From NCBI GenBank assembly GCA_045540935.1, contig JAZQIF010000117.1, positions 875-64,874 of the forward strand: a stretch of 64,000 nt of DNA, given 5' to 3'. Under the pieces are notes generated by a model. It did not search any database. It was not told where the DNA came from and worked only from the letters and a program-made list of their open reading frames with translations. The position numbers and the translations under genes were made by a program. Shown here in pieces: positions 22,951-49,548 of the stretch; positions within the stretch are counted from its first letter, which is position 1, and every line of letters starts with the position of its first letter. The DNA is from Erysipelotrichaceae bacterium (GTDB taxonomy: Bacteria; Bacillota_I; Bacilli_A; Erysipelotrichales; Erysipelotrichaceae).

Positions 22951-22960
22951 GGGGGTAACT

Positions 22961-24881: not shown

Positions 24882-24913
24882 AAAAGAGAAATGTCATTGC
24901 GACATTTCTTTTT
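24879..24913. terminator. bidirectional intrinsic terminator between convergent genes
   Basis: A-run, GAAATGTC-attgc-GACATTTC, T-run. Confidence 0.75.
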
Positions 24914-34335: not shown

Positions 34336-34342
34336 AGTGATG

Positions 34343-34370
34343 AAAAAGTGACGATTTATGTCGCTTTTTT
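34343..34370 (+). terminator. intrinsic terminator
   Basis: AAAAGTGAC-gatttat-GTCGCTTTT stem with a T-run. Confidence 0.6.
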
Positions 34371-34420
34371 ATTTAAGAAATATATAATGGATTTTAGTTT
34401 CGAAAAAAGGAGATTTAACT

Positions 34421-35839
34421 ATGATCGGAAAACAGACCAAGATCATCTGTACCCTCGGACCTGCTTCGGACAGTTATGAGACGATCCTGAAGATGGCCCA
34501 GGAGGGAATGAATATCGTCCGACTGAACTTTTCCCATGGCACGCATGACGAACATCTTGCCAGGATCAATACAGTCAGAAAAGTAGAGAAAGAAAACGGG
34601 ATCAACCTGGGTATCATGCTGGATACCAAGGGACCGGAGATCCGTTTAGGTACATTCAAGAATGATGTCGAGACTTACCAGAAGGGTGAGATCGTTACGA
34701 TACAAAGAGAAGACATCGAAGGAACTCACGATCGTTTCACGATCCAGTGCAAGGAGATCTTCGACGATGTCGTCCCGGGCAACTACATCTTAGTCAATGA
34801 CGGCAAACAGAAACTGACCGTCTTGGAGAATGATGGCAAAGAGATCAAGGCGAGAGTCGAGGTCAACGGCCAGCTGGCTTCCAAGAAGGGCTGCAATGTG
34901 CCGGGCGTCAAACTGTCGATGCCATTCGTTTCTTTGAAGGATGACGAAGATATCCGTTTCGGATGCAACAATGATGTCGATTTCATCGCCGCTTCCTTCG
35001 TCAGAAGAGCGGAAGATGTCATGAAGATCCGTAAGATCATCACCGAGATGGGTAAGCCGAAGATCCAGATCATCGCCAAGATCGAAAACCAGGAAGGTTT
35101 CGATAACCTCGATGAGATCTTAGAGGCGGCAGATGGCGTCATGGTCGCCAGAGGTGACTTGGGCGTCGAAGTCGAAACGGCTTTCGTTCCGATCTACCAG
35201 AAGAAGATCATCGAACTGGCCAACAAGAAAGGCAAGGCCGTCATCACGGCGACCCACATGCTGGACTCCATGACTTCCAATCCGCGCTGTACCAGAGCGG
35301 AAGCGTCCGATGTTTCCAATGCGGTGCTCGACGGAAGCGATGCGGTCATGTTATCGGCAGAAACGGCAGCGGGAGAATATCCGGTGGAAGCTGTCTCGAC
35401 GATGGCCAAGATCGCTGCGGCGACCGAACAGATCATCCCTTACAGAGAGAACCTCGAACATGCCAAGGTTTCCAACAACAAGACCATTCAGGATGCCATC
35501 GGTATCGCGATCTCCGATGCGACTCTGACTCTGGATATCGCGGCGATCGTCGTCTTCACACAGGGAGGCACCACCGCCAGACGTATCTCGAAGTATCGTC
35601 CGCCGGTACCAATCTTCGCAGTCACGTTCACCAAGTCCACCCAGGGCAAGCTGGAAGTTTACTGGGGCGTCAAGCCGATCTTCTCTTACGTTCAGAACAA
35701 CATGACCAACGACGACGAACTAGCTTCTTCCGTCGTGAAATCCTATGGCATCAAGCCGGGTTCCCAGATCATCCTTTCCGCCGGTTATCCGACAGGCGAG
35801 GGTTCTGCCAACTTCATGAAGATCATCACCGTCAAATAG
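34421..35839 (+). CDS. pyk: pyruvate kinase
   Basis: KIICTLGPAS...MNIVRLNFSHG...MVARGDLGVE...TQMLxSM-like blocks. 472 aa. Confidence 0.93.
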   Translation: MIGKQTKIICTLGPASDSYETILKMAQEGMNIVRLNFSHGTHDEHLARINTVRKVEKENGINLGIMLDTKGPEIRLGTFKNDVETYQKGEIVTIQREDIEGTHDRFTIQCKEIFDDVVPGNYILVNDGKQKLTVLENDGKEIKARVEVNGQLASKKGCNVPGVKLSMPFVSLKDDEDIRFGCNNDVDFIAASFVRRAEDVMKIRKIITEMGKPKIQIIAKIENQEGFDNLDEILEAADGVMVARGDLGVEVETAFVPIYQKKIIELANKKGKAVITATHMLDSMTSNPRCTRAEASDVSNAVLDGSDAVMLSAETAAGEYPVEAVSTMAKIAAATEQIIPYRENLEHAKVSNNKTIQDAIGIAISDATLTLDIAAIVVFTQGGTTARRISKYRPPVPIFAVTFTKSTQGKLEVYWGVKPIFSYVQNNMTNDDELASSVVKSYGIKPGSQIILSAGYPTGEGSANFMKIITVK

Positions 35840-35843
35840 TTTC

Positions 35844-35871
35844 AAAAGCCATATTGAAGTATGGCTTTTTT
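35844..35871 (+). terminator. intrinsic terminator
   Basis: AGCCATA-ttgaag-TATGGCT followed by TTTTT. Confidence 0.8.
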
Positions 35872-35915
35872 CATGCGGGTGATAGAATAAAGGTAAGGAG
35901 AGTTTTAGATAATAT

Positions 35916-37109
35916 ATGAAAATTGGTGTTTATTATGCCGTTCCAGCTACGGCAGCTGCCGAGATCGCCAATGGCGGTAATTTCCCTTGGCTGAAGAAGC
36001 TGAGCGAGGAAACGGGTTTTGAATTTGAAGTGACCGATGTCGATCACATCAATGACTATGATATGGTCGTCGATTTCATCGGCGGCGGCGGTACGGAAGG
36101 CATCTTCAAGAGAGATATGGACAAGCTTCCGCAGCCTTACTTCCTTTTAACGACCGGAGCCAACAACTCCCTGGCAGCTTCCATGGAGATCCTTTCCTAC
36201 CTGCGTCAGAACGACCTTCCGGGTGAGATCATCCACGGCAGCGATGACTTCGTCGTATCCAGGATCAAAGAACTCGCGCAGGTCTTCAAGGCTAAGAAGA
36301 GACTTGACGGTTTCAAGGTCGCCAGAGTCGGCGAACCTTCCGACTGGCTGATCTCCTCCAGTGTCGATGCGAAGGAGTCCAAAGAATACAACAACATCGA
36401 GATCATCGATGTCACGATGGAAGAGTTCTTTGAAGAGATCGCAAAGAAAGAATATGTTGAAAACGAATATACGAAGCTCATCAAGTCCAAGGGCTATGAC
36501 GAACATGAGATCGAAGAAGCTTTATACATCTACGGTGCTTTAAGAAGGATCGTCGATAAGTATGAACTCAACGGCATCACTGTCAGATGTTTCGATCTTC
36601 TTGATACCGTTCATTCCACAGGCTGTGCCGCTCTGGCCATCCTGAATGCGGCGGGTATCTACGCATCCTGCGAAGGCGATGTCCCGGCGCTGTTATCGAT
36701 GGCTGTCATCGGTGAACTTTCCGAAAAGCCGGTCTTCATGGCCAATCCTTCCAGGATCGATACCGACAACAACGAGATCATCTTTGCCCATTGCACACTT
36801 CCGATCAACATGCCTTCCAGCTTCGAGATCATGACCCACTTTGAGTCACAGATCGGTGTCGCGTTCCGCGGCAAGCTGAAAGAAGGTCCGGTCACGGTCT
36901 TCAAGTGTGACGGTCTGCTGAATGAATTCTTCGTATCCAAGGCAGAACTTCTGGAGAACTTGAGCTTATTCAACCTCTGCCGTACGCAGATCCGTCTCAA
37001 GATGGATCATCCGGTCTCTTACTTCCTGACCGAATCGATCGGCAACCACCATCTGATCGTGGAAGGCGATTACGCCAAACTGGTCGAAGAATTTTTCAAG
37101 TGGTTATAA
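35916..37109 (+). CDS. uncharacterised FucI/AraA-like sugar isomerase superfamily protein
   Basis: The central block VRCFDLLDTVHSTGCAALAILNAAGIYASCEGDVPALLSM...FAHC resembles the catalytic domain of the L-fucose/L-arabinose isomerase-like family (COG2407-type). The assignment is tentative. Confidence 0.4.
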   Translation: MKIGVYYAVPATAAAEIANGGNFPWLKKLSEETGFEFEVTDVDHINDYDMVVDFIGGGGTEGIFKRDMDKLPQPYFLLTTGANNSLAASMEILSYLRQNDLPGEIIHGSDDFVVSRIKELAQVFKAKKRLDGFKVARVGEPSDWLISSSVDAKESKEYNNIEIIDVTMEEFFEEIAKKEYVENEYTKLIKSKGYDEHEIEEALYIYGALRRIVDKYELNGITVRCFDLLDTVHSTGCAALAILNAAGIYASCEGDVPALLSMAVIGELSEKPVFMANPSRIDTDNNEIIFAHCTLPINMPSSFEIMTHFESQIGVAFRGKLKEGPVTVFKCDGLLNEFFVSKAELLENLSLFNLCRTQIRLKMDHPVSYFLTESIGNHHLIVEGDYAKLVEEFFKWL

Positions 37110-37130
37110 AGCTGCTTAGGGAGAAAGAAA

Positions 37131-37568
37131 ATGTCGAATGAAGAACTGATCGCACTGGCCTTCGAAGCCAGAGAGAAAGCATACGCCCCGTATTCCAACT
37201 GGAAAGTCGGAGCAGCCCTGCTGTGCAAAGACGGTACGGTCTACAAAGGATGCAATATCGAAAACAGCGGTTTCACTTCGACCATCTGCGCCGAACGGAC
37301 AGCCTTTTTCAAGGCGATCTCCGAGGGCGTATATGACTTTGAAAAGATCGCGATCGTCGGCGGCGATGCCGACAGGGGCTCAGAGGGTTACTGCACGCCT
37401 TGCGGTGTCTGCCGGCAGGTGATGTCCGAGTTCTGCAAGCCGGATGAGTTCAGGATCATCTGTGCCAAGTCGGAAAACGAATACCACGAATTCACGCTCA
37501 GACAGATGCTACCGGAATGTAACTTCATCGCGGAAGCGGATGACGGTTACGGATTCAAAGCCAACTGA
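37131..37568 (+). CDS. cdd: cytidine deaminase
   Basis: Zinc motifs CAERTAF and CTPCGVCRQ. 145 aa. No terminator separates it from the upstream FucI-like gene. Confidence 0.88.
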   Translation: MSNEELIALAFEAREKAYAPYSNWKVGAALLCKDGTVYKGCNIENSGFTSTICAERTAFFKAISEGVYDFEKIAIVGGDADRGSEGYCTPCGVCRQVMSEFCKPDEFRIICAKSENEYHEFTLRQMLPECNFIAEADDGYGFKAN

Positions 37569-37573
37569 ACATG

Positions 37574-37614
37574 AAAAAAGATCATGCGCTCCAAATGGGA
37601 CACATGATCTTTTC
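37574..37614. terminator. bidirectional terminator between cdd and the nucleoside hydrolase gene
   Basis: A-run, AGATCATG, 16-nt loop, CATGATCT, T-run. Confidence 0.65.
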
Positions 37615-37616
37615 TT

Positions 37617-38600
37617 TTACGCTTCTTTTAACTGTTCCAGAAGGATCTGATGGACTTTGGCAGAGTCCATATGGTAGATGACTTCGACTTTGGAATCGTT
37701 ATTGAACATCCCCCTGCGGTCTATTACCATCTGGCCGTCCGCCATACCGCCTGAGATATCGATATTGACGATGTCTCTTCTTTTTTCCGTGATGACCGAA
37801 GGGTCGATCAAAGGAGCGACCGCCGCATAGTCGTAGATGCAGCAGTCCTCAAGTCCGCCATGGAATAACAGGTCGCATCTTCGTATATAGCCGTCGAGCT
37901 CTTCGGCGATAAAGCTTGCCGCCGGTGTATTGAGGTCAGCGATATCCTGAATGTCCTTTCGGGTATAGGTGGCACCTTCCTCGCAGGCTTCGATCGGACA
38001 GACGATGCAATGTGCACCGCTGGATAAGACGATCTGGGCAGCTTCCGGATCATCGTAGAAGTTGGCTTCGGCAAGCGGTGTGCGGTTTCCGATATACAAG
38101 CCGCCGCCCATGATGTAGATGGTACCGATGTTTTCGACGATCTTCGGCTCAAGACGCAAGGCCATGCCAAGATTTGTCAATGGACCGACAGCACAGATGT
38201 CGATCTTTTCTTCACTGTTTTTCAGTGTTTCGATCAGATAGGAACAGGCGTGTTTTTCTTCAACTTTGCGCTCAGGAAGCGGCAGTGGGAATTCCTTCTC
38301 GTGGATCAGCACTTCCTTGCCGTCGACTTCCATGCGGATGCGTTCCATCAGCGTGTTGTAGTCTCTTCCTTTGATGAGATCTCTGACCATCGGACTTTCA
38401 CACCCCTTATAGACCGGGATGTCCTTGCCACAAAGGTGGGAAACTTTCAGGGCATTATTGACGACGTCATCCGCCGGGATATTTCCTTTGACACAGGTGA
38501 TGGCGATCACTTCCAGGTCTTTTTCTTTCAATAAGGCGATCAGCGCCACCGCGTCATCGCAGCCGATATCACAGTCAAATATGATCTTATTATGTTTCAT
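37617..38600 (-). CDS. nucleoside hydrolase (IUNH family)
   Basis: N-terminal DCDIGCDDAVAL (DxDxxxDD calcium/ribose motif). 327 aa. Confidence 0.85.
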   Translation of the reverse strand: MKHNKIIFDCDIGCDDAVALIALLKEKDLEVIAITCVKGNIPADDVVNNALKVSHLCGKDIPVYKGCESPMVRDLIKGRDYNTLMERIRMEVDGKEVLIHEKEFPLPLPERKVEEKHACSYLIETLKNSEEKIDICAVGPLTNLGMALRLEPKIVENIGTIYIMGGGLYIGNRTPLAEANFYDDPEAAQIVLSSGAHCIVCPIEACEEGATYTRKDIQDIADLNTPAASFIAEELDGYIRRCDLLFHGGLEDCCIYDYAAVAPLIDPSVITEKRRDIVNIDISGGMADGQMVIDRRGMFNNDSKVEVIYHMDSAKVHQILLEQLKEA

Positions 38601-38632
38601 CGTATTTACCTCGCTTTCAGTATAGCAGATTA

Positions 38633-38662
38633 TTGACTATGGCAATTTGAGCGTGATAAATT
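38633..38662 (+). promoter_or_regulatory. promoter of the hydrolase/deaminase/phosphorylase operon
   Basis: -35 TTGACT (38633-38638), 18-nt spacer, extended -10 TGaTAAATT (38654-38662). Confidence 0.5.
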
Positions 38663-38729
38663 GAAATTGTAAAGTTGCTTCTGTAGAAGTATAAGAGTGA
38701 ATGCAAATTCATATCAACGAAGTTAGTTG

Positions 38730-38756
38730 GCCGGCTTTCAAAGCTGGCTTATTTTG
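38730..38756 (+). terminator. terminator-like hairpin inside the 5' leader (candidate attenuator)
   Basis: GCCGGC-tttcaaa-GCTGGC followed by TTATTTTG. It ends 26 nt before the 38782 start codon. Confidence 0.4.
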
Positions 38757-38781
38757 TCTATAGGGTGCATAAGGAGCTTAT

Positions 38782-39534
38782 ATGAAAGACAATTTCAAAG
38801 TGAGCCTTTGCTGCCCGATCCCGAGGGTCGGTTTCGGGATAGGAGAAAGGCATTGCGAAGATGCGATCTTCCAGATGGAAGGCTATCTTTCTTCATGCAA
38901 AGGAGACATCATCGTCTTCCCCGAAGGCTATATCCCTTCCGATAAGACAGAAGAAGTGGTGCGGCTGGCTCATAAATACGATAAGTGGATCATCACGGGC
39001 TGCGAGGATGATCCTCCCCGCAAAAACTTATATACGCTTCTCATTTCGCCGGAGAACGGCTTGCTTTATTGCCATCAGAAGACAGCACTGACCGATGGTG
39101 ACCGTAAAAACGGAGCGATCGCCGGAGACAAGATCCATGCGATCGATTCGCCATTCGGAAAGATCGGCATCGTCTTGTGTTATGAGATCCATTTTCCGGA
39201 AGTGGCCAGGATCGAATGCATCGAAGGTGCCCGCATCCTGTTCAATACGATCGGTACCGGCATGTGGCATGAGCAGCAGTTTTCTGAATGGACTGCGATC
39301 GCCAGGGCCAGAGCGATCGAAAACCGCTGCTTCGTCGTGGGATGTACCCATTTCTGTGATCCGATCCCGCTGGTCTTTGCCTATGATCCGCATGGCCGGA
39401 CATTATTGTTGAAAAGAAATGAAGAAGGCCTGTTCGATGTGGATATCGATATGGCTCTGATCGATGAGAGAGATTATTTCAAGGACAGAAATCCGAAAGC
39501 ATACACCAAGATCTGTGAGGAGGAGATATTATGA
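38782..39534 (+). CDS. carbon-nitrogen hydrolase (nitrilase superfamily)
   Basis: The Glu-Lys-Cys triad is visible: VFPEGY, YCHQKTAL, IVLCYEIHFPE. 250 aa. RBS AAGGAG. Confidence 0.8.
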   Translation: MKDNFKVSLCCPIPRVGFGIGERHCEDAIFQMEGYLSSCKGDIIVFPEGYIPSDKTEEVVRLAHKYDKWIITGCEDDPPRKNLYTLLISPENGLLYCHQKTALTDGDRKNGAIAGDKIHAIDSPFGKIGIVLCYEIHFPEVARIECIEGARILFNTIGTGMWHEQQFSEWTAIARARAIENRCFVVGCTHFCDPIPLVFAYDPHGRTLLLKRNEEGLFDVDIDMALIDERDYFKDRNPKAYTKICEEEIL

Positions 39535-40868
39535 GCGATTTTCTGATCAGAAATGCCGATGTGGCGAATTTTGACGATCTGACGACGTCACGAAAGGGCA
39601 TCCTTATCAAAGATGGAAGGTTTGAAAAGATCGCCGATGCCATCGATCCGGCTTTATACCCGGATGCGCAAGTCATCGATGCGAAGGGGATGCTGGCGAT
39701 GCCGGGCTTTACCGATTGCCATTCCCATGTCTATCAGACTTTCATCAAGGGACCGCTGGATGACCTGGTGATCACCGAATGGCTGGTAAGACTCTTCACA
39801 TTCGAAGAGTATATGACCGATGAAGATTACTATTATGCGACACTTCTCTCCTGTCTCTCGGCGATGCGTTTTGGTACGACGACGATCAACGAGATGGGCG
39901 GCTATGAACATATGGATGCGACGCTTCAGGCTTTTGAAGATGCCGGCATCCGGGTGACGTTTGGCATCTCGACGACCGACATCCCGGAAAACGAAGTGAC
40001 ACCGATCATTTCCGTCGAAGAAGCGATCGCCAGAAGTGAGGAAGTCTATCGTAAGTGCCATGGCCGCAATCACGGCCTGATGAAAGCTTCGGTCGCCCCG
40101 GCAGGCCTGCCGGCAGTGTCAGGTGAGATGGCTAAGGCTTTGAAGGCCTGGGCAAATGAAAGAGGACTCATCTATCACACCCACCTTGGTGAAGGAAAGA
40201 TGGAGACCGAAAGAGTCGCGAAGGAATACGGGCTTGGCGGCGAGGCGGAAGCCTTGGAATCGCTGGGCATATTGGATGAGAAGACCCTGCTGGCGCATTC
40301 GATCTGGCTCTCCGACCACGAGATCGACATCATCGCCAAAAGCGGTGCCATTCCGGTCCATTGTCCGAATACCAACATGAAGATCTCTGACGGCATCCCG
40401 AAGATCGCGCAGATGCTTGAAAAGGGCATCCCGGTCGCGATGGGCTGTGATGGCGAAGCTTCAAGCGGTACCAAGGATATGGTCAGAGAAGGAAAGGCCG
40501 GTTCCTATCTGCAGAAGGCAGTGACTTTGGATCCGACCGTGATGGATGCCGGTACGACTTTCAAAATGATGACGGTCAATGGCGCAAAGGCTCTCGGTTA
40601 TGATGACCTGGGTCTGATCAAAGAGGGTTATCAGGCAGACCTGATCTTAGTCAACATGGAAGATGATCTTTCTTTGACGGACCGCGACCACAGGATCGGC
40701 AATCTTCTCTATGCCGGTACCGGACACGCCGTCGATACGGTCTTTGTGGCCGGACAGCTCAAAGTGAGGAATAAAAAACTCGTCGATTTCGATGAAGAGT
40801 TCATATTGCGTAAATGCAACGACCTGATCCATGACCTCAATGTCAGGACAGGCTATGTAAAGGAGTAA
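39531..40868 (+). CDS. amidohydrolase of the ATZ/TRZ (MtaD/SsnA/guanine-cytosine deaminase-like) group
   Basis: MPGFTDCHSHVYQ (HxH), YHTHLGE, LLAHSIW, HCPNTNMKISDG, MGCDGEASS. ATGA overlap with the upstream gene. Confidence 0.8.
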   Translation: MSDFLIRNADVANFDDLTTSRKGILIKDGRFEKIADAIDPALYPDAQVIDAKGMLAMPGFTDCHSHVYQTFIKGPLDDLVITEWLVRLFTFEEYMTDEDYYYATLLSCLSAMRFGTTTINEMGGYEHMDATLQAFEDAGIRVTFGISTTDIPENEVTPIISVEEAIARSEEVYRKCHGRNHGLMKASVAPAGLPAVSGEMAKALKAWANERGLIYHTHLGEGKMETERVAKEYGLGGEAEALESLGILDEKTLLAHSIWLSDHEIDIIAKSGAIPVHCPNTNMKISDGIPKIAQMLEKGIPVAMGCDGEASSGTKDMVREGKAGSYLQKAVTLDPTVMDAGTTFKMMTVNGAKALGYDDLGLIKEGYQADLILVNMEDDLSLTDRDHRIGNLLYAGTGHAVDTVFVAGQLKVRNKKLVDFDEEFILRKCNDLIHDLNVRTGYVKE

Positions 40869-40870
40869 GG

Positions 40871-41704
40871 ATGAAAGTACGGGAAAAGAAATATCTGGAT
40901 TCCAAGGGAAGATTGTATTTCACCGGATTAAAGGAAGGTGATATCGCAAAGACTGTCCTGATGCCCGGTGATCTGGCAAGATCGAAGGTCATTGCCGACT
41001 GTTTCAAAGAAGCCCATTTCGTCAACGGACAAAGGACCTATTACACCTATAGCGGCGTGACTGAGAAGGATGTGCCGATCTCGGTCATCTCTTCCGGCAT
41101 GGGACCTCTGGCGGTCTCGACGGTCGCCGAGGAGTGTTCACAGATCGGCATGAAGTATCTGATCCGTGTGGGTACCGGTGCTGCCTTATTGACGGATTAT
41201 CGGCCGGGACGCATCATCATTGCGACAGGCTGCGTCAGAGGGGACGGAAACTCCTACGAGTATGTACCTGCCGAGTATCCGGCGATCGCCGATCCGTATG
41301 TGACGATGGCCCTCATCAAGGCGTGCAAGGAATTCGGCGAAGATCCGATCATCGGCCTATACCGGGCTCATGATTCCTATTACCGCGAGACTTCTACGGC
41401 AATGATCGATACCTATGAAAGGATGAAACCGTGGGTCGATGCCGGCGTAAAGATGGTGGAGAATGAATCGGCGACTCTGTTCACTGTCGGTCCGCAGCTG
41501 GGACTTCGCTGCGGTTCGATCTGCGTATCGCACACTTCGATGGTCGAAGATACCATCTACTATACCGGTCCGAAGTCGGAAGAAGCTTATCCGGAAGCGT
41601 TCGAGGATGATTTCATGGACAAGCGGATCAAGGTCTGCTCAAAGATCGCCGTACGGGCAGCCGAGATCATCGATGAGATGGAAAAGAAAGGAGTCATACG
41701 CTGA
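40871..41704 (+). CDS. PNP/UDP (NP-I) family nucleoside phosphorylase, paralogue 1
   Basis: Aligns by eye to E. coli Udp blocks: PGDLAR, SSGMGPLAVSTVAEE, IRVGTGAA, GCVRGDGNS, EYPAIAD, VENESATLFTV. Confidence 0.75.
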   Translation: MKVREKKYLDSKGRLYFTGLKEGDIAKTVLMPGDLARSKVIADCFKEAHFVNGQRTYYTYSGVTEKDVPISVISSGMGPLAVSTVAEECSQIGMKYLIRVGTGAALLTDYRPGRIIIATGCVRGDGNSYEYVPAEYPAIADPYVTMALIKACKEFGEDPIIGLYRAHDSYYRETSTAMIDTYERMKPWVDAGVKMVENESATLFTVGPQLGLRCGSICVSHTSMVEDTIYYTGPKSEEAYPEAFEDDFMDKRIKVCSKIAVRAAEIIDEMEKKGVIR

Positions 41705-42507
41705 TGACAGAAAAGATCAAAAACGGTTTTGACTCGATCCCCCAGCTGGAAAAAGACGGGACCGTCCATCATTTAGGCATTGACCATTCGCAGATCGGGG
41801 AAGGGGTCATCCTGACTTCCAATCTGGAGCGTGTGGAGCTCATCAAAAATCGTTTCGATGAGGCGAAACGGGAAGCGTTCCACAGAGAATACATCACCTA
41901 TACCGGGACTTTTGATGGCGTAAGGATGTCGGCCATGTCGATCGGCAACGGCTGCATGCCGACCGAGATCGCTGTGGAAGAACTGCGTCATGTCGGATGC
42001 AAGCGCATGATCAAAGTTGGCTCCTGCTACGCCATCGATCCGGATATCAAACCGGGCACGATCTTCGTCCCGACCGGGGCTTGCCGCTGTGAGGGGGCGA
42101 CACTCGAATATGTCAATATCCAATACCCGGCAGTCAGTGACCTGCAGACTTTCTTTGCCTTGTTACAAAGTGCGAAAGAAAAAGGTGCCGAGGTAAAGAC
42201 CGGCATCATCCGTACCCATGACGGATTGTTTCTGGAATCACCGTTTGCCCATGAGGGAGTCAGGGAAAGGATCGTCCCGTGGCAGAAAGTCGGTGTTTCT
42301 TGCGTGGACAACGAGTGTGCGACGATGTTTACGGTCGCCTCGATCTTGCAGATGCAGGCCGGCTGCATCTATGTGGTGACCGACAACCTTGAAACAGGCG
42401 AAGCGATGGATTATGAAAAGGATTATGAAAACAAGATCATCGAGATCATCGATATCGCTATTTCTGCCATGGCGAAGCTGATCAGGGGAGAGGAATATGA
42501 AATATAA
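41704..42507 (+). CDS. PNP/UDP (NP-I) family nucleoside phosphorylase, paralogue 2 (divergent)
   Basis: SIGNGCMPTEIAVEE, IKVGSCYA (Lys where paralogues 1 and 3 have Arg), GACRCEGAT, QYPAVSD, VDNECATMFTV. TGATG overlap with paralogue 1. Confidence 0.7.
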   Translation: MTEKIKNGFDSIPQLEKDGTVHHLGIDHSQIGEGVILTSNLERVELIKNRFDEAKREAFHREYITYTGTFDGVRMSAMSIGNGCMPTEIAVEELRHVGCKRMIKVGSCYAIDPDIKPGTIFVPTGACRCEGATLEYVNIQYPAVSDLQTFFALLQSAKEKGAEVKTGIIRTHDGLFLESPFAHEGVRERIVPWQKVGVSCVDNECATMFTVASILQMQAGCIYVVTDNLETGEAMDYEKDYENKIIEIIDIAISAMAKLIRGEEYEI

Positions 42508-43306
42508 GTCGGCAAAGCTCGTCAATGAGAAAGGAAAGATGTGGCACATCGGCTTAGATGAGAATGATTGCGGAAAGCATTTCATTTTACCTGCCGATCC
42601 GGCAAGATGCGAGATGGTGGCAAAGCATTTCGATACTGCCGAACTCAAAGCCATAGCCAGAGGAAATCCCACCTATACCGGGACCTATCACGATGTTCCG
42701 GTCTCGGTCATGTGTACCGGCATGGGTTCCATGGCGGTCTCGGTCGCCGTGGAGGAACTCAAACACTTAGGCGTGAAGACGATGATCCGCATGGGGACCT
42801 GCGGTTCTTTGCAGGCAAATCTGCCGGAGAACTGTTTCGTGATCGCGACCGGAGCGATACGCGGGGAAGGAGCTTCGAAAGAATACATCCCTTTGGAATA
42901 TCCGGCAGTTGCCGATGTCGATGTAGTCTGCGCCTTGCGCAAGGCTTGCGAAGAATATGGCGTGAAGCCATATCTTGGCATCGTGCGGAGTCATGACTCT
43001 TTCTATATCGAATCGCCAGGCGCTCATGAAGGATATCTAGAAAGGATACAGCCGTGGACCGATGCGGGTGCTCTGGCGGTAGAAAACGAGTCTTCGGCCT
43101 TATTTACGGTCGCTTCTTTGCTGGGCGGCATCCGGGCAGGAACGATCCTTCTTTGCGGAGGTTACCTCGGAAGCAGCTATGGAAGCATGTCGACTTCCAA
43201 TAAGGACGGCTATGCGCAGAAAGTGGACTTGATGTCAAAGATCACCTTACGGGCGATCGAGATCATTGATGGATTGGATGATCTTAAAGACATACGGGAA
43301 GTTTAG
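42497..43306 (+). CDS. PNP/UDP (NP-I) family nucleoside phosphorylase, paralogue 3
   Basis: PADPAR, CTGMGSMAVSVAVEE, IRMGTCGS, GAIRGEGAS, EYPAVAD, VENESSALFTV. 11-nt overlap with paralogue 2. Confidence 0.75.
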   Translation: MKYKSAKLVNEKGKMWHIGLDENDCGKHFILPADPARCEMVAKHFDTAELKAIARGNPTYTGTYHDVPVSVMCTGMGSMAVSVAVEELKHLGVKTMIRMGTCGSLQANLPENCFVIATGAIRGEGASKEYIPLEYPAVADVDVVCALRKACEEYGVKPYLGIVRSHDSFYIESPGAHEGYLERIQPWTDAGALAVENESSALFTVASLLGGIRAGTILLCGGYLGSSYGSMSTSNKDGYAQKVDLMSKITLRAIEIIDGLDDLKDIREV

Positions 43307-43948
43307 ATGAAACATATCGATCTGAAAGCTTTCCTTGTACGTTTTGCGATCAGCTTCTTTGCCTCGGCGATCTCCAGTTTCGGTATCGGCTGCTACTATA
43401 ACTGCGGTTTCGGGACCGATCCGATCTCGATCTTCGTCGACGGACTGCATGGTCATTTTGGTCTGTCCTATGGAACGATCTCGACCATCTGCAACGTCAT
43501 ACAGACGATCTTCATCTTCATTTTCATAAGGAAGTATCTGGGTCCCGGTACGCTTCTGGGCGTATTGACCGGCGGTCCTTTGATCGATCTCTCGGAGATC
43601 ATGATGCGAAACCTTTTCCAGGCAGATCAGACGGCATTGACTGTCAGGATACTCATCCTGATCGTCGCTCTGATCACGACAGGGATCGGTTATGGCATGG
43701 GCATCGGGGCAGAAATGGGTGTCGGCTGTTTTCAGTTTTTGCCTTTGTTTCTGAGCGAGAAGACACCGCTTGAGCTCAAGTATACGCAAGTCATCACGGA
43801 CGCTTTATTTTTCTTCACCGGTCTTCTTTTGGGCGGGGTGGTCGGCATCGGATCGATCGTTTCGGTCCTTGCGACAGGTTATTTTCTCGACATCGGTCTG
43901 AAGCTGACGGAGCATCTGAACAAGGATGTCGGACCGTGGTATTTATGA
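43307..43948 (+). CDS. YczE/YitT-like small polytopic membrane protein (putative transporter)
   Basis: 213 aa, about 6 TM helices, with an N-terminal FGIGCYYNCGFGTDPISIF motif. The start abuts the stop of paralogue 3. Confidence 0.45.
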   Translation: MKHIDLKAFLVRFAISFFASAISSFGIGCYYNCGFGTDPISIFVDGLHGHFGLSYGTISTICNVIQTIFIFIFIRKYLGPGTLLGVLTGGPLIDLSEIMMRNLFQADQTALTVRILILIVALITTGIGYGMGIGAEMGVGCFQFLPLFLSEKTPLELKYTQVITDALFFFTGLLLGGVVGIGSIVSVLATGYFLDIGLKLTEHLNKDVGPWYL

Positions 43949-43987
43949 ACATTTTGTGCATAATTTCGGATACCCGTCTCTGAATTG

Positions 43988-43996
43988 TGTTATACT
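43988..43996 (+). promoter_or_regulatory. extended -10 element TGtTATACT
   Basis: It precedes the structured RNA region. No clear -35 element at canonical spacing. Confidence 0.4.
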
Positions 43997-44022
43997 GAAT
44001 CTGAACTTGAAAACACAGTAAG

Positions 44023-44119
44023 AACTCCCCATGATCTGACTGCTTTATTTTGGTATAAGCCGACTGCGCATATCTGGTCGGATTATATAGAAGGAGCAGG
44101 TGCGAGCTTATGGGGAGTT
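44023..44119 (+). ncRNA. candidate structured RNA (leader or sRNA): 97-nt rod-like hairpin
   Basis: P1 is AACTCCCCAT (44023-44032) paired with ATGGGGAGTT (44110-44119). P2 is CTGCT (44040-44044) paired with AGCAG (44095-44099). The apical hairpin is GTATAA.CCGAC (44053-44064) paired with GTCGG.TTATAT (44077-44088). The element lies between a promoter-like element and a strong terminator. Confidence 0.35.
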
Positions 44120-44155
44120 TGTCTTGTATCTGCTTCTTTGTATGAGACATATTTC

Positions 44156-44184
44156 ACAGGTACTGCTGAAGGTACCTGTTTTTA
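44156..44184 (+). terminator. intrinsic terminator closing the structured RNA
   Basis: ACAGGTAC-tgctgaag-GTACCTGT followed by TTTTTAT. Confidence 0.75.
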
Positions 44185-44227
44185 TATTTCAGAGGCTTAT
44201 TTGAAAACGTCTAAGACAAAAAGCTAC

Positions 44228-44257
44228 TTGTAACCGTCAAATAAGAGATGTTAAAAT
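44228..44257 (+). promoter_or_regulatory. second promoter directly upstream of the BMP ABC operon
   Basis: -35 TTGTAA (44228-44233), 18-nt spacer, extended -10 TGtTAAAAT (44249-44257). Confidence 0.45.
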
Positions 44258-44358
44258 TTATTTAGATATGTGTATATGGAAGACAGAATATATCCGATAA
44301 GATAGAAGGCGTTTTTTATGTATGCAGATCTGTTTTTTCAAGAAAGAAGGAGAAAAAA

Positions 44359-45543
44359 ATGAAGAAATTTCTTACGTTAGCTCTCGCTTTGCTTCTTACG
44401 ATGTGCTTATTCGGCTGCGCTAAGAAGGAAGGCGGCAATGAAGGCGAAGCAACTCCTGCAGCAAGCGATGAACATTACGATGTCGTATTCCTTGCTGACC
44501 TGGGTTCCATCTATGATGGCGGCTTCAACGAGCACTCATTCTATGGTATCAAGGACTATTGTGAAGAGAACGGCCTGAAGTACACGTACTTACAGCCTGC
44601 AGGTTCCGATGATGCTTCCAGAACGACGATCTTCGAACAGGCAGTCAACCAGATGTCTGCAGATGTCTTAGTCGCTGTCGGCTTCTTATGGGATGCTGCA
44701 CTCTGCCAGGAGATCCCGAATTATCCGGATGTCAAAGTCATCTTCGTCGATGCCGATGACCTCTACAACATCGACTACAACTATGACGGTGTCGATGATT
44801 CCCTGCCTCATCAGGACAACCTGGCGATGATCACATTCGCTGAGCAGGACTGCGGTTACATGGCCGGTTACGCTGTCGTCAAAGACGGTTACAGAAACCT
44901 GGCATTCATGGGTGGTATGGCTGTTCCGGCTGTCGTCAGATTCGGTTACGGCTTCATCGAAGGTGCGGAAGATGCTGCTGAAGAACTCGGTTTGGCTGAA
45001 GGCTCCATCGATATGAAATACTTCTATACCGGTACATTCGATGCTTCTCCGGATATCGTTACCAGAGCTTCCGAATGGTACACCAACGGTACAGAGATCA
45101 TCTTCTCCTGCGGCGGTACGATCGTCAACTCCGTTATCCAGGCTGCTAAGGATGGCGAAAACAGAAAGATCGTCGGTGTCGATACCGATGAATACTTCAC
45201 AAGAGCTGCTGACGGTGCTGAAAACGAACCATTATTCGTCACTTCCGCTATGAAGGATCTGGAAGTCACGATCTACAGAGCTGTCAAGGCTGCTTACGCC
45301 GGCGGTTCCGAATGGTCCAACTACACGAGCCAGGGCCTGATCCGTTTAGGTGCTAAGGAAGACGGTGCTATCCTTGCTCCGTACAGAGCTGAAAACTGGA
45401 ACACATTCACAGAAGAAGATTACAATGCTGTCAAGCAGCAGGTCATCGCTGTTCATGATACATTACCGACCGAAGTCGATGGTGTCAACGGTGCTCCTGT
45501 CGACGGCTACAAGTACGTCAACGTTACTTACTTCGAACAGTAA
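44359..45543 (+). CDS. BMP-family (PnrA/TmpC-like) nucleoside-binding ABC lipoprotein
   Basis: Lipobox LFGC after MKKFLTLALALLLTMC. The blocks FLADLGSIYDGGFNE...VGF...GVDTDEY are typical of the basic membrane protein family. Confidence 0.85.
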   Translation: MKKFLTLALALLLTMCLFGCAKKEGGNEGEATPAASDEHYDVVFLADLGSIYDGGFNEHSFYGIKDYCEENGLKYTYLQPAGSDDASRTTIFEQAVNQMSADVLVAVGFLWDAALCQEIPNYPDVKVIFVDADDLYNIDYNYDGVDDSLPHQDNLAMITFAEQDCGYMAGYAVVKDGYRNLAFMGGMAVPAVVRFGYGFIEGAEDAAEELGLAEGSIDMKYFYTGTFDASPDIVTRASEWYTNGTEIIFSCGGTIVNSVIQAAKDGENRKIVGVDTDEYFTRAADGAENEPLFVTSAMKDLEVTIYRAVKAAYAGGSEWSNYTSQGLIRLGAKEDGAILAPYRAENWNTFTEEDYNAVKQQVIAVHDTLPTEVDGVNGAPVDGYKYVNVTYFEQ

Positions 45544-45566
45544 TATCATTTATCACTGAATTGTCT

Positions 45567-45591
45567 AGGGAGGTGCGTTATACACCTCCCT
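45567..45591 (+). terminator. intercistronic hairpin (partial terminator/mRNA stabiliser) after the SBP gene
   Basis: Perfect 9-bp stem AGGGAGGTG-cgttata-CACCTCCCT followed by an interrupted T-tract, TACGTTTATTT. Confidence 0.5.
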
Positions 45592-45620
45592 TACGTTTAT
45601 TTGACGAAAGGATAAGTATT

Positions 45621-47159
45621 ATGGAAACTGCGGAAAACATTATTGAATTCCGTCACATAACCAAAAGGTTCCCGGGCATCATCGCCTGCAACGATATCAG
45701 CCTGGACATCCGCAAAGGAGAGATCCATGCCCTGCTTGGTGAAAACGGCGCGGGTAAATCCACTTTGATGAGTGTTCTTTTTGGTATGTATACGCCTGAA
45801 GAAGGCAGTATCGCGATCAGGGGGAAAGAAGTCAAGATCACCAATCCGCGTGTCGCAACTGAGCTGGGTATCGGTATGGTGCACCAGCACTTCAAACTCG
45901 TGCAGAACTATTCCGTTCTTCAGAATATCGTATTAGGTTCTGAAACTTTAAAGGGACCGTTCCTCGATATGGACAGCTGCCGTAAGAAAGTCGTCGAACT
46001 TTCACAGAAATACGGTCTGGCAGTCGATCCGGATGCCCTTATCGAAAACATTACAGTCGGTCAGCAGCAGCGCTGTGAGATCCTGAAGATGCTTTACAGA
46101 GATGCCGAGATCCTGATCTTCGATGAACCGACTGCCGTATTAACTCCGCAAGAGATCGATGAACTCATGGAGATCATGAAAGGCCTGGCAAAAGAAGGCC
46201 ACACGATCCTGTTCATCTCACATAAACTCGAAGAGATCAAACGGGTCTCCGACAGAGTCACCGTCTTAAGAAGAGGCAAGCTGATCGAAACGCTCAACGC
46301 CGCCGATACGACGACGACACAGATGGGCGAACTGATGGTCGGCAGGGAAGTTTCCTTCCATGTCGATAAGAAGCCGGCTGAACCGAAAGAAGAAGTATTG
46401 AAAGTCGAACATCTCACGATGATCAACGACGAGACCAAGAAAAAGGTCGTCAATGATGTCTCCTTCTCTGTCAGGAAGGGCGAGATCCTGGCGATCGCCG
46501 GAATCGACGGAAACGGGCAGAGCGAACTGATCTACGGACTCACCGGCATCATGCCGATCGAGGAAGGAAAGATCACGATCAACAAAGAAGACTACACCAA
46601 GAAGTCGATCCGCGAGAGGAATCTCGTGATGTCACATGTTCCGGAAGACCGTCATAAATACGGTCTGATCCTGGATTATCCGCTGTCCTACAACCTGGCT
46701 TTGAAGAACTACTTCAAACCGGAATTCGTTTCCAAGACAGGTTTCCTGAATTTCCACAAATTCGATACCTATGCCGATGAACTGATCGACCGCTTCGATA
46801 TCCGTTCCGGACAGGGTAAGATCACGATGGCCAGATCGATGTCCGGCGGCAACCAGCAGAAAGCGATCGTTGCCAGAGAGATCGACCAGAATGCTGATGT
46901 CTTAGTGGCGGTCCAGCCGACCAGAGGTCTTGATGTCGGCGCCATCGAATTCATTCACAAACAGCTGGTCGAACAAAGAGACAAAGGCAAGGCCGTCTTA
47001 CTGATGTCGTTTGAACTTGATGAGGTCATGGATGTTGCAGACCGTGTGATCGTCATGTTCGAAGGCGAGATCATGGGTGATCTCGATCCGAAGAAAGTAT
47101 CGGTCGAGGAGATGGGCTTATACATGGCCGGTGTCAAGAGAGAGGAGAAAAGCGCATGA
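45621..47159 (+). CDS. ABC importer ATP-binding protein with duplicated NBDs (sugar/nucleoside CUT2 type)
   Basis: First NBD: GENGAGKST, Walker B ILIFDEPTAVL. Second NBD: GIDGNGQSE, LSGGNQQK-like signature SMSGGNQQK. The start is chosen at METAENI, after AAAGGA. Confidence 0.9.
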   Translation: METAENIIEFRHITKRFPGIIACNDISLDIRKGEIHALLGENGAGKSTLMSVLFGMYTPEEGSIAIRGKEVKITNPRVATELGIGMVHQHFKLVQNYSVLQNIVLGSETLKGPFLDMDSCRKKVVELSQKYGLAVDPDALIENITVGQQQRCEILKMLYRDAEILIFDEPTAVLTPQEIDELMEIMKGLAKEGHTILFISHKLEEIKRVSDRVTVLRRGKLIETLNAADTTTTQMGELMVGREVSFHVDKKPAEPKEEVLKVEHLTMINDETKKKVVNDVSFSVRKGEILAIAGIDGNGQSELIYGLTGIMPIEEGKITINKEDYTKKSIRERNLVMSHVPEDRHKYGLILDYPLSYNLALKNYFKPEFVSKTGFLNFHKFDTYADELIDRFDIRSGQGKITMARSMSGGNQQKAIVAREIDQNADVLVAVQPTRGLDVGAIEFIHKQLVEQRDKGKAVLLMSFELDEVMDVADRVIVMFEGEIMGDLDPKKVSVEEMGLYMAGVKREEKSA

Positions 47160-48280
47160 CAGTGAAAGCTAAAAGGAAATTCGATATCACGCGTTATACA
47201 TCTCTTCTGTCATCCCTGGTCGCCGTTGTCGGCGGTCTGATCATCGCATTCGTCGTTCTGATGCTGACAAATCCTTCCAAGGGTCTTTCGGCGTTCACGA
47301 CACTGATCACCGGCGGTTTCCAGCTGGGCGGTCTGAAAAACTTAGGAACTTTATTCTACTTTGCGACACCGATCCTTTGTACCGGTGTTGCGATGTGTGT
47401 CGCTTTCCAGGCCGGTATCTTCAATATCGGCGGACCTGGCCAGTATTCGGTCGGTGCTCTGGCAGCGATCTTAACATCCTTGTATTTCTCAAAGGATCTT
47501 CCGGCACCTCTGACCTGGATCGTTCCTTTGATCGTCGCAACCATTGCCGGTGCTTTATGGGCTCTCATCCCGGGCATCTTAAAGGCATACTTCAACGTCA
47601 ACGTCGTCATCGGTACCATCATGTTCAACTACATCGAGATGTACTACATGATGCACTGGATCAATGACTACTGCTATGATGCGATGAAAGGTCAGACAAA
47701 GGCCATCCCGGCACAATGCAAACTGCCGCAGGCCTTCATGCCTGCGATCACCGCAAACAAGACGGCCGATATCGGCATCATCATCGCAATATTGGTCGCG
47801 GTCTGTGCCTGGGTCCTGCTGGAAAAAACGAAACTGGGTTATGAACTGAAAGCCTGCGGTAAGAATGCCGAAGCTTCCAGATATGCGGGTATCAAGTCCA
47901 AGAGGAACATCATGATCTCGATCTTACTGTCCGGTGCGCTTTGCGGACTGGGCGGCGGTCTGACGCACTTATCGGCTTCCGGTACGTATATCACGATGAA
48001 GGAACAGCTGGCTGCCGAAGGCTTCAACGGTATCGCGGTCTGCTGTCTTGCGAATAACTCACCGTTAGGTGCCATTTTAGGTGCCTTGTTCCTGGCGTTC
48101 TTAACAGTCGGCGGCAACTATATGCAGATCTTCGGTTTCCAGAGAGAGATCGTTTCCGTCATCACGTCCGTCATCATCTATTTCGCGGCATTCTCTTTGT
48201 TCTTGAAGCAGATGCTGGAAAAGATGCTGATCCGCCAGACCAAGGAAATAAACAAAGTCACAGGAGAGGAGCTCAAATAG
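47156..48280 (+). CDS. ABC importer permease (BMP/CUT2 system)
   Basis: 374 aa, about 9-10 TM helices. ATGA overlap with the ATPase gene. Confidence 0.85.
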   Translation: MTVKAKRKFDITRYTSLLSSLVAVVGGLIIAFVVLMLTNPSKGLSAFTTLITGGFQLGGLKNLGTLFYFATPILCTGVAMCVAFQAGIFNIGGPGQYSVGALAAILTSLYFSKDLPAPLTWIVPLIVATIAGALWALIPGILKAYFNVNVVIGTIMFNYIEMYYMMHWINDYCYDAMKGQTKAIPAQCKLPQAFMPAITANKTADIGIIIAILVAVCAWVLLEKTKLGYELKACGKNAEASRYAGIKSKRNIMISILLSGALCGLGGGLTHLSASGTYITMKEQLAAEGFNGIAVCCLANNSPLGAILGALFLAFLTVGGNYMQIFGFQREIVSVITSVIIYFAAFSLFLKQMLEKMLIRQTKEINKVTGEELK

Positions 48281-48281
48281 T

Positions 48282-49238
48282 ATGGAAATGTTGTATTTTA
48301 TCGCACGCTATTTCATGTATTTCTTCATTCCGCTCCTGGTCGTTTCCATCAGCGGCATGTTCTCTGAACGAAGCGGTGTCATCCATATGGGTCTGGATTC
48401 CGTCATGGTATGGTCCTGTATGTGGGGCGTGCTTTGTCTGCAATGGCTCGATGGGGTCGTAGCCGGCCAGCTGCGTCTGATCATCGCTCTGTTATTTGCC
48501 GGGGTCATGGGCGTCTTGCTGACACTGCTATTGGCAGTGGCGGCAGTCAACTTAAATGCCGATCAGACGATCGTCGGTATGGCCATGAATACCTTTGCGC
48601 CGGCCTTCTGTATCTTCTTTGCCAGAGTCTTACAGAACGGTTCGGAGCACCTGTCCATCCGCAATGACTTCCTGATCGAACGTATCCCGGTACTTGCCGA
48701 TATCCCGATCATCGGTCCGATGTTCTTCACGAGAACGTATATCACCAACTTTATCGGAATCGTGATCTTCATTATTTCGGCGATCATCCTCAACAAGACG
48801 AGATTCGGTCTTCGTATGTGTGCATGCGGTGAGAATCCGCAGGCTGCCGAATCTTTGGGTGTCAACGTACAGAAGTACAGATATGCCGCTTTGATCATTG
48901 CCGGTTTCATCGGCGGTATGGGCGGTCTGATGTACATCATTCCGGTCGCGACTCACTATTCGCAGACTGTCGGCGGTTACGGTTATCTGGCGATGTCCGT
49001 TCTGATCTTTGGTCAGTGGCGTTCCATTCCGCTTCTGGGAGCGGCAGCGTTCTTCGCTTTCTGCAAGACGATCGCCAATGCCTATTCCGGTATCCCGCTT
49101 CTTGCCAATCTGGGACTTCCGGCTGCCTTCTATAAGAGCCTTCCGTTCATCGTCACACTGATCGCTTTGGCCATCACGTCGAAACACGACCATGCGCCGA
49201 AAGCTTCCGGTCAGCCGTACGATAAATCGATGCGCTGA
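48282..49238 (+). CDS. ABC importer permease (BMP/CUT2 system)
   Basis: 318 aa polytopic protein. The start is 1 nt after the upstream stop. RBS GGAGAGGAG. Confidence 0.85.
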   Translation: MEMLYFIARYFMYFFIPLLVVSISGMFSERSGVIHMGLDSVMVWSCMWGVLCLQWLDGVVAGQLRLIIALLFAGVMGVLLTLLLAVAAVNLNADQTIVGMAMNTFAPAFCIFFARVLQNGSEHLSIRNDFLIERIPVLADIPIIGPMFFTRTYITNFIGIVIFIISAIILNKTRFGLRMCACGENPQAAESLGVNVQKYRYAALIIAGFIGGMGGLMYIIPVATHYSQTVGGYGYLAMSVLIFGQWRSIPLLGAAAFFAFCKTIANAYSGIPLLANLGLPAAFYKSLPFIVTLIALAITSKHDHAPKASGQPYDKSMR

Positions 49239-49253
49239 TCCATACGGATATCT

Positions 49254-49291
49254 CCGCAGTCTCATCGGCGATGATGGGACTGCGGTTTTTT
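49254..49291 (+). terminator. intrinsic terminator of the BMP ABC operon
   Basis: CCGCAGTC, 16-nt loop, GACTGCGG, followed by TTTTTT. Confidence 0.75.
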
Positions 49292-49375
49292 AACGCAAGC
49301 CTGAATTCATCTCCGCCTTTACACTTTGAAAGAGGACGGGGACTTCTTCGGGCTTGCGTTAAAAACATTCAGATA

Positions 49376-49408
49376 AGCCGGAGCGATCCGGCTTTTCTCT
49401 GTTTTGTG
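49376..49408 (+). terminator. second terminator about 100 nt downstream
   Basis: AGCCGGA-gcga-TCCGGCT followed by TTTCTCTGTTTTG. Confidence 0.55.
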
Positions 49409-49548
49409 TTATCATCGATTTAGAACGAAGAGAAATCTTGTGCTGCCGGCTTTGATGTTGTTTTGAGCGGCTGTGTTTTAAAGCAGGCGTATGATCATGG
49501 CCGGGGCATCTTTTCCTGACATAATGATCGATAAAAAAGAGGTGTTTT

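Follow-up and report, generated by a model that had tools for sequence, protein, structure and literature searches.

Tandem nucleoside phosphorylase paralogues with complementary active-site residues suggest a heteromeric enzyme in a ruminant-gut Erysipelotrichaceae bacterium

Phosphorylases of the nucleoside phosphorylase-I (NP-I) family, which serve both as drug targets and as workhorse biocatalysts for nucleoside-analogue synthesis, are to our knowledge textbook homo-oligomers. The DNA analysed here (the window) is a 64,000-nucleotide (nt) stretch of contig JAZQIF010000117.1 from an Erysipelotrichaceae bacterium (assembly GCA_045540935.1, positions 875 to 64,874), and its nearest genomes are ruminant-gut Erysipelotrichaceae metagenome-assembled genomes (MAGs). 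It encodes three tandem NP-I paralogues, P1, P2 and P3, at positions 40871-43306. Taken singly, the proteins are unremarkable representatives of a familiar superfamily; the new part is the inferred quaternary logic, which is graded across lineages to a pure pseudo-subunit. P1 and P2 are likely to be different subunits of one nucleoside phosphorylase, an obligate heteromer in which each would complete the active sites of the other.

The closest described protein is the uridine phosphorylase (UP) of S. pyogenes, 3qpb ("UP-2"), which is the best sequence match to P1-P3 (E 1e-37 to 1e-48) and the best fold match to models of P1 and P2 (template modelling (TM) score 0.80-0.89). It has the same α/β protomer and phosphate residues, and likewise a His and an Arg donated across the dimer. 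However, 3qpb assembles as a homohexamer and carries FYGQH and E-M-E motifs, whereas the window proteins have no Gln in the former, carry Asn for Met197, and include a two-gene complementary pair. Similarly, E. coli Udp (1k3f) shares the fold and the roles of residues 8, 26, 30, 48, 91, 94, and 198, but its Gln166 and Arg168 are absent from the window proteins and its Met197 is replaced by Asn. Additionally, Glu49 of Udp, a K+ ligand at the interface, is replaced by Thr in P1 and by Gly in P3. E. coli DeoD (1pr0) resembles P2 in a "VGSC" motif and in an Asp aligned to Asp204, and resembles P3 in an Arg-Gly at positions 48-49. In contrast, DeoD-type models score P1-P3 at only 62-112 bits, below their cutoffs of 230-338, and fold searches place uridine phosphorylases first. 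Residue numbers are those of E. coli Udp unless they belong to a named protein; the Udp and DeoD sequences used are identical to those of PDB 1k3f and 1pr0.

Like logic is found outside the NP-I fold. In the Tad2/Tad3 tRNA deaminase and in the RNase III pairs of the editosome, which have folds unrelated to NP-I, duplication of a homo-oligomer whose active sites straddle the interface was followed by complementary loss, and one paralogue is catalytic while the other is structural or a donor. Among uridine phosphorylases, Schistosoma mansoni reportedly has an active isoform, SmUPa, and an inactive one, SmUPb, a precedent for an impaired paralogue; this is said to be a eukaryotic dimeric enzyme and is not reported as an obligate heteromer. 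In a literature search of incomplete coverage, which provides absence of evidence only, neither a heteromeric NP-I/PNP_UDP_1 enzyme nor this gene cluster was found described.

Three overlapping genes with non-canonical base pockets

Positions 40871-43306 hold three + strand open reading frames (ORFs), encoding P1 (40871..41704, 277 aa), P2 (41704..42507, 267 aa), and P3 (42497..43306, 269 aa), with 35-40% pairwise identity. All three match PF01048 (PNP_UDP_1), at 82.6, 98.1, and 120.2 bits, respectively, against a gathering score of 25.1, and the three adjoining, overlapping NP-I genes that a preliminary description of this DNA had proposed are thereby confirmed. As read from the DNA, the P1 and P2 genes have one base in common (TGATG) and the P2 and P3 genes overlap by 11 nt. 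The preliminary description took these overlapping stop and start codons to imply equimolar synthesis and, from this, a plausible heteromer; since the whole operon is equally compact, they argue little alone. For instance, the stop codon of the amidohydrolase gene upstream lies 2 nt 5′ of P1, and the gene that follows P3 starts with no gap.

The best NCBIfam model for the three proteins is the uridine phosphorylase model TIGR01718, to which they score 150.7, 160.8, and 199.9 bits; its equivalog cutoff is 280.3. All three thus fall short of the TIGR01718/NF008383 cutoff for a uridine phosphorylase, and they lie below every other NCBIfam cutoff as well. P1 and P2, the two proteins that were modelled with AlphaFold2 (predicted local distance difference test 92.4 and 92.9, respectively; predicted TM score 0.91), are confidently modelled as protomers like those of hexameric UP. 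The top 50 Foldseek matches to these models are uridine phosphorylases throughout (TM score 0.74-0.92), with 3qpb first. P1 and P2 were assigned from PF01048, residue alignment, and these models, and P3 from PF01048, residue alignment, and a phylogenetic tree.

Gln166 and Arg168 are described as binding uracil and as setting UP apart from purine nucleoside phosphorylase (PMC7271239). This pair is absent from P1, P2, and P3 under either of two alignments (YYRETST, LFLESPF, and FYIESPG, respectively), the GQER segment being replaced by YYRETS, LFLESP, and FYIESP. The E-M-E motif reads ENE in P1, DNE in P2, and ENE in P3, with Asn for Met197 in each. Lacking the Gln/Arg pair and having Asn for Met197, the three proteins therefore fail the defining test for a uridine phosphorylase, and both marks of the UP-2 subclass, the FYGQH(E/S)P base loop and E-M-E, are missing. 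Equivalents of Arg30 (R37 in P1, R43 in P2, and R37 in P3) and Arg48 (R55, R61, and R55) are present in all three. P2 has K104 for Arg91, and S39-N40 where Udp has Gly26-Asp27. The motifs and arginine equivalents quoted in the preliminary description, its non-canonical pocket, and its Lys for Arg91 and missing PGD in P2 all align to E. coli Udp as claimed there.

The back wall of the base pocket is Ser-His-Thr in P1, Thr-Asp-Asn in P2, and Gly-Gly-Tyr in P3. In sequence alignment, the DeoD Asp204/Ser90 columns hold Thr222/Thr102 in P1, Asp227/Ser107 in P2, where the "VGSC" motif carries the Ser90 equivalent, and Gly222/Thr101 in P3. To judge from these residues, the three active sites probably differ in base preference. 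Such differences, including the P2 Asp aligned to DeoD Asp204, favour the alternative that P1, P2, and P3 each form a homo-oligomer of their own, differ in base or sugar specificity, and are simply expressed together from a single catabolic operon. Arg30, Arg48, and Glu198 are kept in all three proteins, multi-phosphorylase loci are common (one locus in the survey described below, L026, has six such genes), and E. coli likewise has DeoD, XapA, and Udp side by side. That every characterised NP-I enzyme we know of is homomeric also counts in favour of three homomers. Nevertheless, three separate homomers are judged improbable, as they leave unexplained several of the patterns that point to a P1·P2 heteromer.

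Complementary residues in P1-class and P2-class proteins

The pocket of uridine phosphorylase is described as being built from one monomer, with the adjacent monomer supplying a His that contacts the ribose 5′-OH and an Arg that contacts the phosphate (PMC7271239). In E. coli numbering, the residues donated in trans are His8 and Arg48, and the cis residues are Gly26, Arg30, Arg91, and Thr94 for phosphate and Met197 and Glu198 for ribose. The cis site of P1 is canonical (G33-D34, R37, R99, T102, E197-N198-E199). Where all uridine phosphorylases have the trans-donated His8, P1 has Phe17 (codon 40919-40921), a feature absent from the preliminary description, and its Arg48 equivalent, R55, is kept and is followed by Thr instead of Glu. 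In P2, the donated residues (H23 and R61-E62) are intact and invariant across the family, and it is the cis site that is altered (S39-N40, K104, S107 for Thr94, D202-N203-E204), with R43 at the Arg30 position kept. The Ser for Thr94 was ruled out as a degenerative change because DeoD has Ser there. P3 has a full cis and trans set (H17, A33-D34, R37, R55, R98, T101, E196-N197-E198). The phosphate-binding set is therefore complete in P1 and P3; P2 keeps Arg30, Ser94, and Arg48 but has Ser26 and Lys91. In a homo-oligomer each subunit has to supply all cis and trans residues, which neither P1, without the donated His, nor P2, with its altered cis site, does. For instance, a homomer of P1 would have Phe at every 5′-OH position.

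Across 78 P1 orthologues, position 8 is Phe in 43, His in 26, and Tyr in 6, and the idea that P1 universally lacks His8 was dropped. Among P2 sequences, His8, Arg48, Ser/Ala26, Asn27, and Lys91 are each found in 97/97. On these alignments, the donated residues are unconstrained in the P1 class and invariant in the P2 class, and independent homomers give no account of such drift on one side and invariance on the other despite destroyed P2 sites.

This division was followed through approximately 110 loci, obtained from a genome scan (17 loci), from contig look-ups of divergent P1, P2, and P3 homologues, and from a metagenome scan (80 loci) seeded with second-gene proteins. The arrangement seen in the window recurs in dozens of genomes. 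A protein was scored as cis intact if Arg30, Arg91, Thr/Ser94, and Glu198 were all present and as trans intact if His8 and Arg48 were both present; first-class proteins, such as P1, are cis intact and trans altered, and second-class proteins, such as P2, are cis altered and trans intact. The 203 classifiable non-redundant proteins comprise 83 canonical, 57 first-class, and 63 second-class proteins, and none is altered in both sets, for which three unrelated homomers would again offer no reason. G26, R30, R91, G93, and E198 are kept in 57/57 first-class proteins, in which the His8 position is F, H, R, S, Y, A, N, or K and the Arg48 position is R, G, K, or S. In second-class proteins, His8, Arg48, and Glu49 persist in 63/63, and the R30, R91, T94, and E-M-E positions vary widely.

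The two classes are also never apart. Where at least 800 nt of upstream sequence was available, a PNP_UDP_1 gene was directly upstream of every second-class gene (54/54; gap -11 to +25 nt), these partners being 48 first-class genes, five P1 genes of the His type, and one partial gene. Conversely, a second-class gene lies directly downstream of all 51 first-class genes with room downstream (51/51). Canonical uridine phosphorylase genes of the EME type are solitary or are 60-200 nt from a DeoD-like gene. Constant pairing of this kind, like the residue patterns, is not accounted for by separate homomers.

In several lineages, the second gene's own site is plainly dead: pairs A-D, which fall within the P1/P2 clade, and pairs E and F, which fall outside it. 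In these second genes, Arg30 gives way to Q, E, M, D, L, or K, the residues at 93-94 are DC, AR, DF, or EA, and E-M-E reads DGE, DRE, or EGV; the first genes paired with them have lost Arg48 to G, S, or K. The second genes of these sister lineages thus clearly qualify as pseudoenzymes, with Arg30 lost and Thr94 replaced by a range of residues, and the P2 of the window, in which Arg30, Ser94, and Glu198 remain and the changes are limited to G26S, D27N, and R91K, does not clearly do so. If the first genes of Pair A formed homomers, these would have no phosphate Arg48 at all.

Pair A modules are common in human-gut and other metagenome contigs (L057-L080), usually with an overlap of 1-4 nt, and therefore the phenomenon is not confined to rumen bacteria. 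Their first gene has Gly for Arg48 and a variable position 8, and their second gene has R30 replaced by Q, E, M, D, or L, DC, AR, DF, or EA at positions 93-94, and DGE or DRE for EME, with His8-Arg48-Glu49 intact. Two pairs outside the Asn197 clade (L030 5195-6768 and L032 321-1801) have the same cis/trans complementarity, their second genes reading VEGQ…KGG…ELD and VESQ…YGT…EGV, respectively, and their sequences suggest independent origins of donor-only subunits in NP-I. On one further metagenome contig, the P1 orthologue is present as two ORFs (L039 3168-4001; 3168-3557 and 3558-4001), which reflects a frameshift or an assembly error.

It was predicted beforehand that distant proteins picked out only by their signature, a dead cis site with intact trans residues, would be the second genes of tight pairs, and this held for 2/2 examined. 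P0337 lies 5 nt downstream of a PNP_UDP_1 gene, and P0332 shares 4 nt with the PNP_UDP_1 gene upstream of it and has an amidohydrolase gene behind it; the upstream partners of both proteins are intact in cis and have Lys for Arg48. The clade is rare: an exhaustive representative search found only 27 representatives at E ≤ 1e-30 among 1.84 billion.

In a neighbour-joining tree (257 columns, 100 bootstraps), the first genes (P1 and those of pairs A-D) are monophyletic with a bootstrap of 100, and the second genes (P2 and those of pairs A-D) with a bootstrap of 99. The two clades mirror each other in internal topology, with longer branches on the second-gene side, and P3 is the sister to the first-gene clade. 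The separation of first and second genes into clades of their own implies that the pair arose once and was then duplicated as a unit. As far as such a tree can tell, duplication as a unit is expected of interacting partners and not of independent enzymes, and the mirrored phylogeny is another feature for which three homomers have no explanation.

Covariation between the paired genes points in the same direction. Among 58 unique pairs, the first gene has Arg at position 48 exactly when the second gene has Arg at position 30 (58/58; 34 pairs with both and 24 with neither; Fisher p ≈ 8e-17, ignoring kinship). Going by the UP site, first-gene Arg48 and second-gene Arg30 would share a phosphate pocket only in a heterodimer, and this covariation is the most direct evidence for a hetero-interface that the sequences offer. 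It has no counterpart in an explanation by independent homomers, which does not predict that Arg48 of P1 should track Arg30 of P2.

The progressive loss of catalytic residues in P2-class proteins, as is seen in pseudoenzymes, could alternatively indicate that P2 is a free-standing, non-catalytic nucleoside sensor or regulator that makes no catalytic dimer with P1. It is hard to see why such a protein should retain precisely those two residues whose role lies across a dimer interface (63/63), nor would the Arg48 of its partner have reason to co-vary with its Arg30, and almost no credence is given to this possibility. Relative to the closest orthologues (L005), the ratio of non-synonymous to synonymous substitution rates (dN/dS) is 0.040, 0.047, and 0.062 across the three genes, 0.047 being that of P2, which indicates strong purifying selection. 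Amino-acid change in P2 is approximately 1.7-3 times that in P1. Judged by its dN/dS and by the invariance of its altered residues (S/A26, N27, and K91), P2 is not decaying. Together, the strong purifying selection and the recurrence in dozens of genomes imply that the arrangement is not due to chance.

A proposed P1·P2 heteromer and the place of P3

From the sequences, predicted fold, residue patterns, gene adjacency, phylogeny, and covariation, we infer how P1 and P2 might associate, in what stoichiometry, and with what activity and substrates at each site. P1 and P2 would pair through the canonical NP-I catalytic dimer interface, and the assembly is probably a trimer of heterodimers, (P1·P2)3. 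Site 1 would consist of the P1 cis residues together with His23 and Arg61 of P2; this is a full catalytic set, and site 1 would be the main phosphorolytic site. Site 2 would combine Ser39-Asn40, Arg43, Lys104, and Ser107 of P2 with Phe17 and Arg55 of P1, so that it would be remodelled and would have lost the 5′-OH contact. As both arginines are kept in the window, site 2 probably still binds phosphate or another anion and is remodelled, not dead, and it could have a different specificity or a regulatory role. More tentatively, it might process 5′-modified or deaminated nucleosides made by the linked amidohydrolase, or it might alternatively be an allosteric sensor of nucleosides or anions. In the sister lineages, site 2 would be fully decayed, and the second subunit would persist only as the donor of a His and an Arg.

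No complementary degeneration is seen in P3, which is probably self-sufficient, given its residues, and would form its own homo-oligomer. A single mixed hexamer of P1, P2, and P3 was also considered, since the three genes are translationally coupled in the window and in close relatives, with overlaps of 1 and 11 nt, and since P3 accompanies the pair on every long contig that was sampled. However, its cis and trans set is complete, and the P3 gene is separable from the pair: in Oscillospiraceae, L001/L002, and L026 it is parted from it by a GntR gene or by 0.8-5.6 kb, and two contigs (L022 and L024) have the pair and no P3. A mixed hexamer of all three is therefore very unlikely. The heteromeric phosphorylase with a specialised subunit that the preliminary description had suggested for all three proteins is thus supported for P1 and P2, by complementarity, adjacency, mirrored phylogeny, and covariation, and is not supported for P3.

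Several observations weigh against an obligate P1·P2 heteromer. The loss of His8 in P1 is lineage-specific, as 26/78 orthologues have His, and the P2 of the window, in which Arg30, Ser94 (as in DeoD), and Glu198 remain, could be an active enzyme by itself. Most of the loci were found through similarity to P2-class proteins, which biases the 51/51 count and not the 54/54 count. The covariation and adjacency counts take no account of kinship, and independent origins of cis-dead partners may number only approximately 3-6. Finally, the base-specificity loop is aligned differently by HMMER and MAFFT, so that no firm substrate call can be made for P1-P3.

Genomic context and implications

The phosphorylase genes are part of a compact operon whose order is CN-hydrolase, amidohydrolase, P1, P2, P3, and a YczE/DUF6198-type protein, followed by a Bmp/PnrA-type transporter; all of these are on the + strand. 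A promoter-like site at 38633..38662, which is a consensus match only, is a candidate operon start upstream of the gene for the CN_hydrolase (nitrilase-superfamily) protein (38782..39534, 250 aa). The stop of this gene overlaps the start of the amidohydrolase gene (39531..40868, 445 aa) by 4 nt, to which it is translationally coupled, and the match of its product to the Pfam model begins only at model position 59. One conceivable comparison for this product is the MtnU/ω-amidase of methionine salvage. The CN_hydrolase gene is present in the Erysipelotrichaceae and Oscillospiraceae versions of the cluster. The amidohydrolase, which belongs to no named family, is the most constant genomic partner of the P1-P2-type pair. 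It lies below every NCBIfam cutoff, its best match is 4f0r (E 2e-52), and its closest relatives are deaminases of 5′-methylthioadenosine, S-adenosylhomocysteine, and 5′-deoxyadenosine (MTA/SAH/5′-deoxyadenosine deaminases). A reductive pyrimidine pathway (dihydropyrimidinase and β-ureidopropionase), considered for the amidohydrolase and CN-hydrolase together, was rejected for the amidohydrolase, as this is of the deaminase/chlorohydrolase type and not of the hydantoinase type.

The gene for the YczE/DUF6198-type membrane protein (43307..43948, 213 aa) begins directly after the P3 stop codon. In different families, most versions of the cluster have this protein alongside the phosphorylase pair, and it may be a nucleobase or nucleoside transporter. 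After a weak terminator-like hairpin (44156..44179), the genes of the Bmp/PnrA-type nucleoside ATP-binding cassette (ABC) transporter encode the binding protein (44359-45543), the ATPase (45561-47159), and the permeases (47156-48280 and 48282-49238), and a strong terminator-like hairpin with a 14 bp stem and a T-run (49254..49285) ends the transporter operon. A search for riboswitches and leader RNAs at 34000-50000 returned none, with only two sub-threshold chance matches. A PADLOC scan for defence systems likewise gave no match, and on this result and the metabolic context an anti-phage effector with a PNP domain (ATP nucleosidase) was rejected.

Upstream of the operon are the genes for an uncharacterised isomerase-like protein (35916-37109, +, 397 aa), cytidine deaminase (cdd; 37131-37568, +), and a nucleoside hydrolase of the inosine-uridine type (37617-38600, - strand). 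Neither a Pfam domain nor a PDB sequence match was found for the isomerase-like protein, which scores only weakly, at 65 bits, to the NCBIfam model of the sulfoquinovose isomerase SftI (cutoff 700). Its gene is kept upstream of cdd in all sibling Erysipelotrichaceae loci, and a 42%-identical homologue lies between PNP_UDP_1 genes in the unrelated locus L030 (3954-5165); it looks like a member of an uncharacterised family that is genomically tied to nucleoside phosphorylase clusters. In sibling genomes, a canonical UP-2-type gene (FYGQH(S/K)PET, EME) directly follows cdd (L008 5010-5762, L009 1620-2366, L010 3996-4742, L011 5124-5870, L012 1602-2354, and L028 3279-4028). In the window (37568-37617) and in L005-L007, only 48 nt follow cdd, and the ordinary uridine phosphorylase is missing from the locus.

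The L026/L029 versions of the cluster include genes for a genuine phosphopentomutase, which scores 530 bits where the cutoff is 256, and for a ribokinase. This linkage and the retained phosphate residues support, on sequence grounds, true phosphorolysis with a pentose-1-phosphate product. L026 and L029 are from the same type of organism, and their locus has six PNP_UDP_1 genes, namely two pairs and two singles; it also holds an amidohydrolase, a nucleoside hydrolase, and a Bmp transporter, and adjoins genes for bacterial microcompartment shell proteins. The remainder of the window is ordinary chromosome. For instance, 21736-25997 carries genes of the arginine deiminase (ADI) pathway (ADI and ornithine carbamoyltransferase) and, on the opposite strand, a gene for an ArgZ-like protein, which represent ordinary metabolism and have no bearing on the phosphorylases.

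In the ruminant-gut Erysipelotrichaceae bacterium, the locus would thus scavenge nucleosides through Bmp import, deamination, and phosphorolysis to pentose-1-phosphate. More broadly, and put forward here tentatively, obligate heteromeric NP-I phosphorylases may form a class that has gone unrecognised and is fairly common among gut Firmicutes, those of the human gut included. In the version found in the window, site 2, whose phosphate loop carries Ser-Asn and which has Lys91 and a Phe facing the ribose 5′ position, would then have a function of its own. In that class, the catalytic subunit would depend on a paralogous donor, and the donor's own site would range across lineages from remodelled to fully dead.

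If P1 and P2 do form a heteromer, they would provide a clear case of evolution from homomer to heteromer by complementary loss at an active site shared across an interface, with intermediate and end states both still to be seen in living lineages. Expression of a P1-class or P2-class gene alone may then yield little or no activity. Automatic annotation of all of these genes as "uridine phosphorylase" or "nucleoside phosphorylase" is misleading. Overall, because its proteins have no uracil-recognition residues and their genes always occur with those of a nucleoside importer and of an uncharacterised amidohydrolase of the deaminase type, the clade probably marks an undescribed route of nucleoside salvage in rumen and human-gut bacteria.

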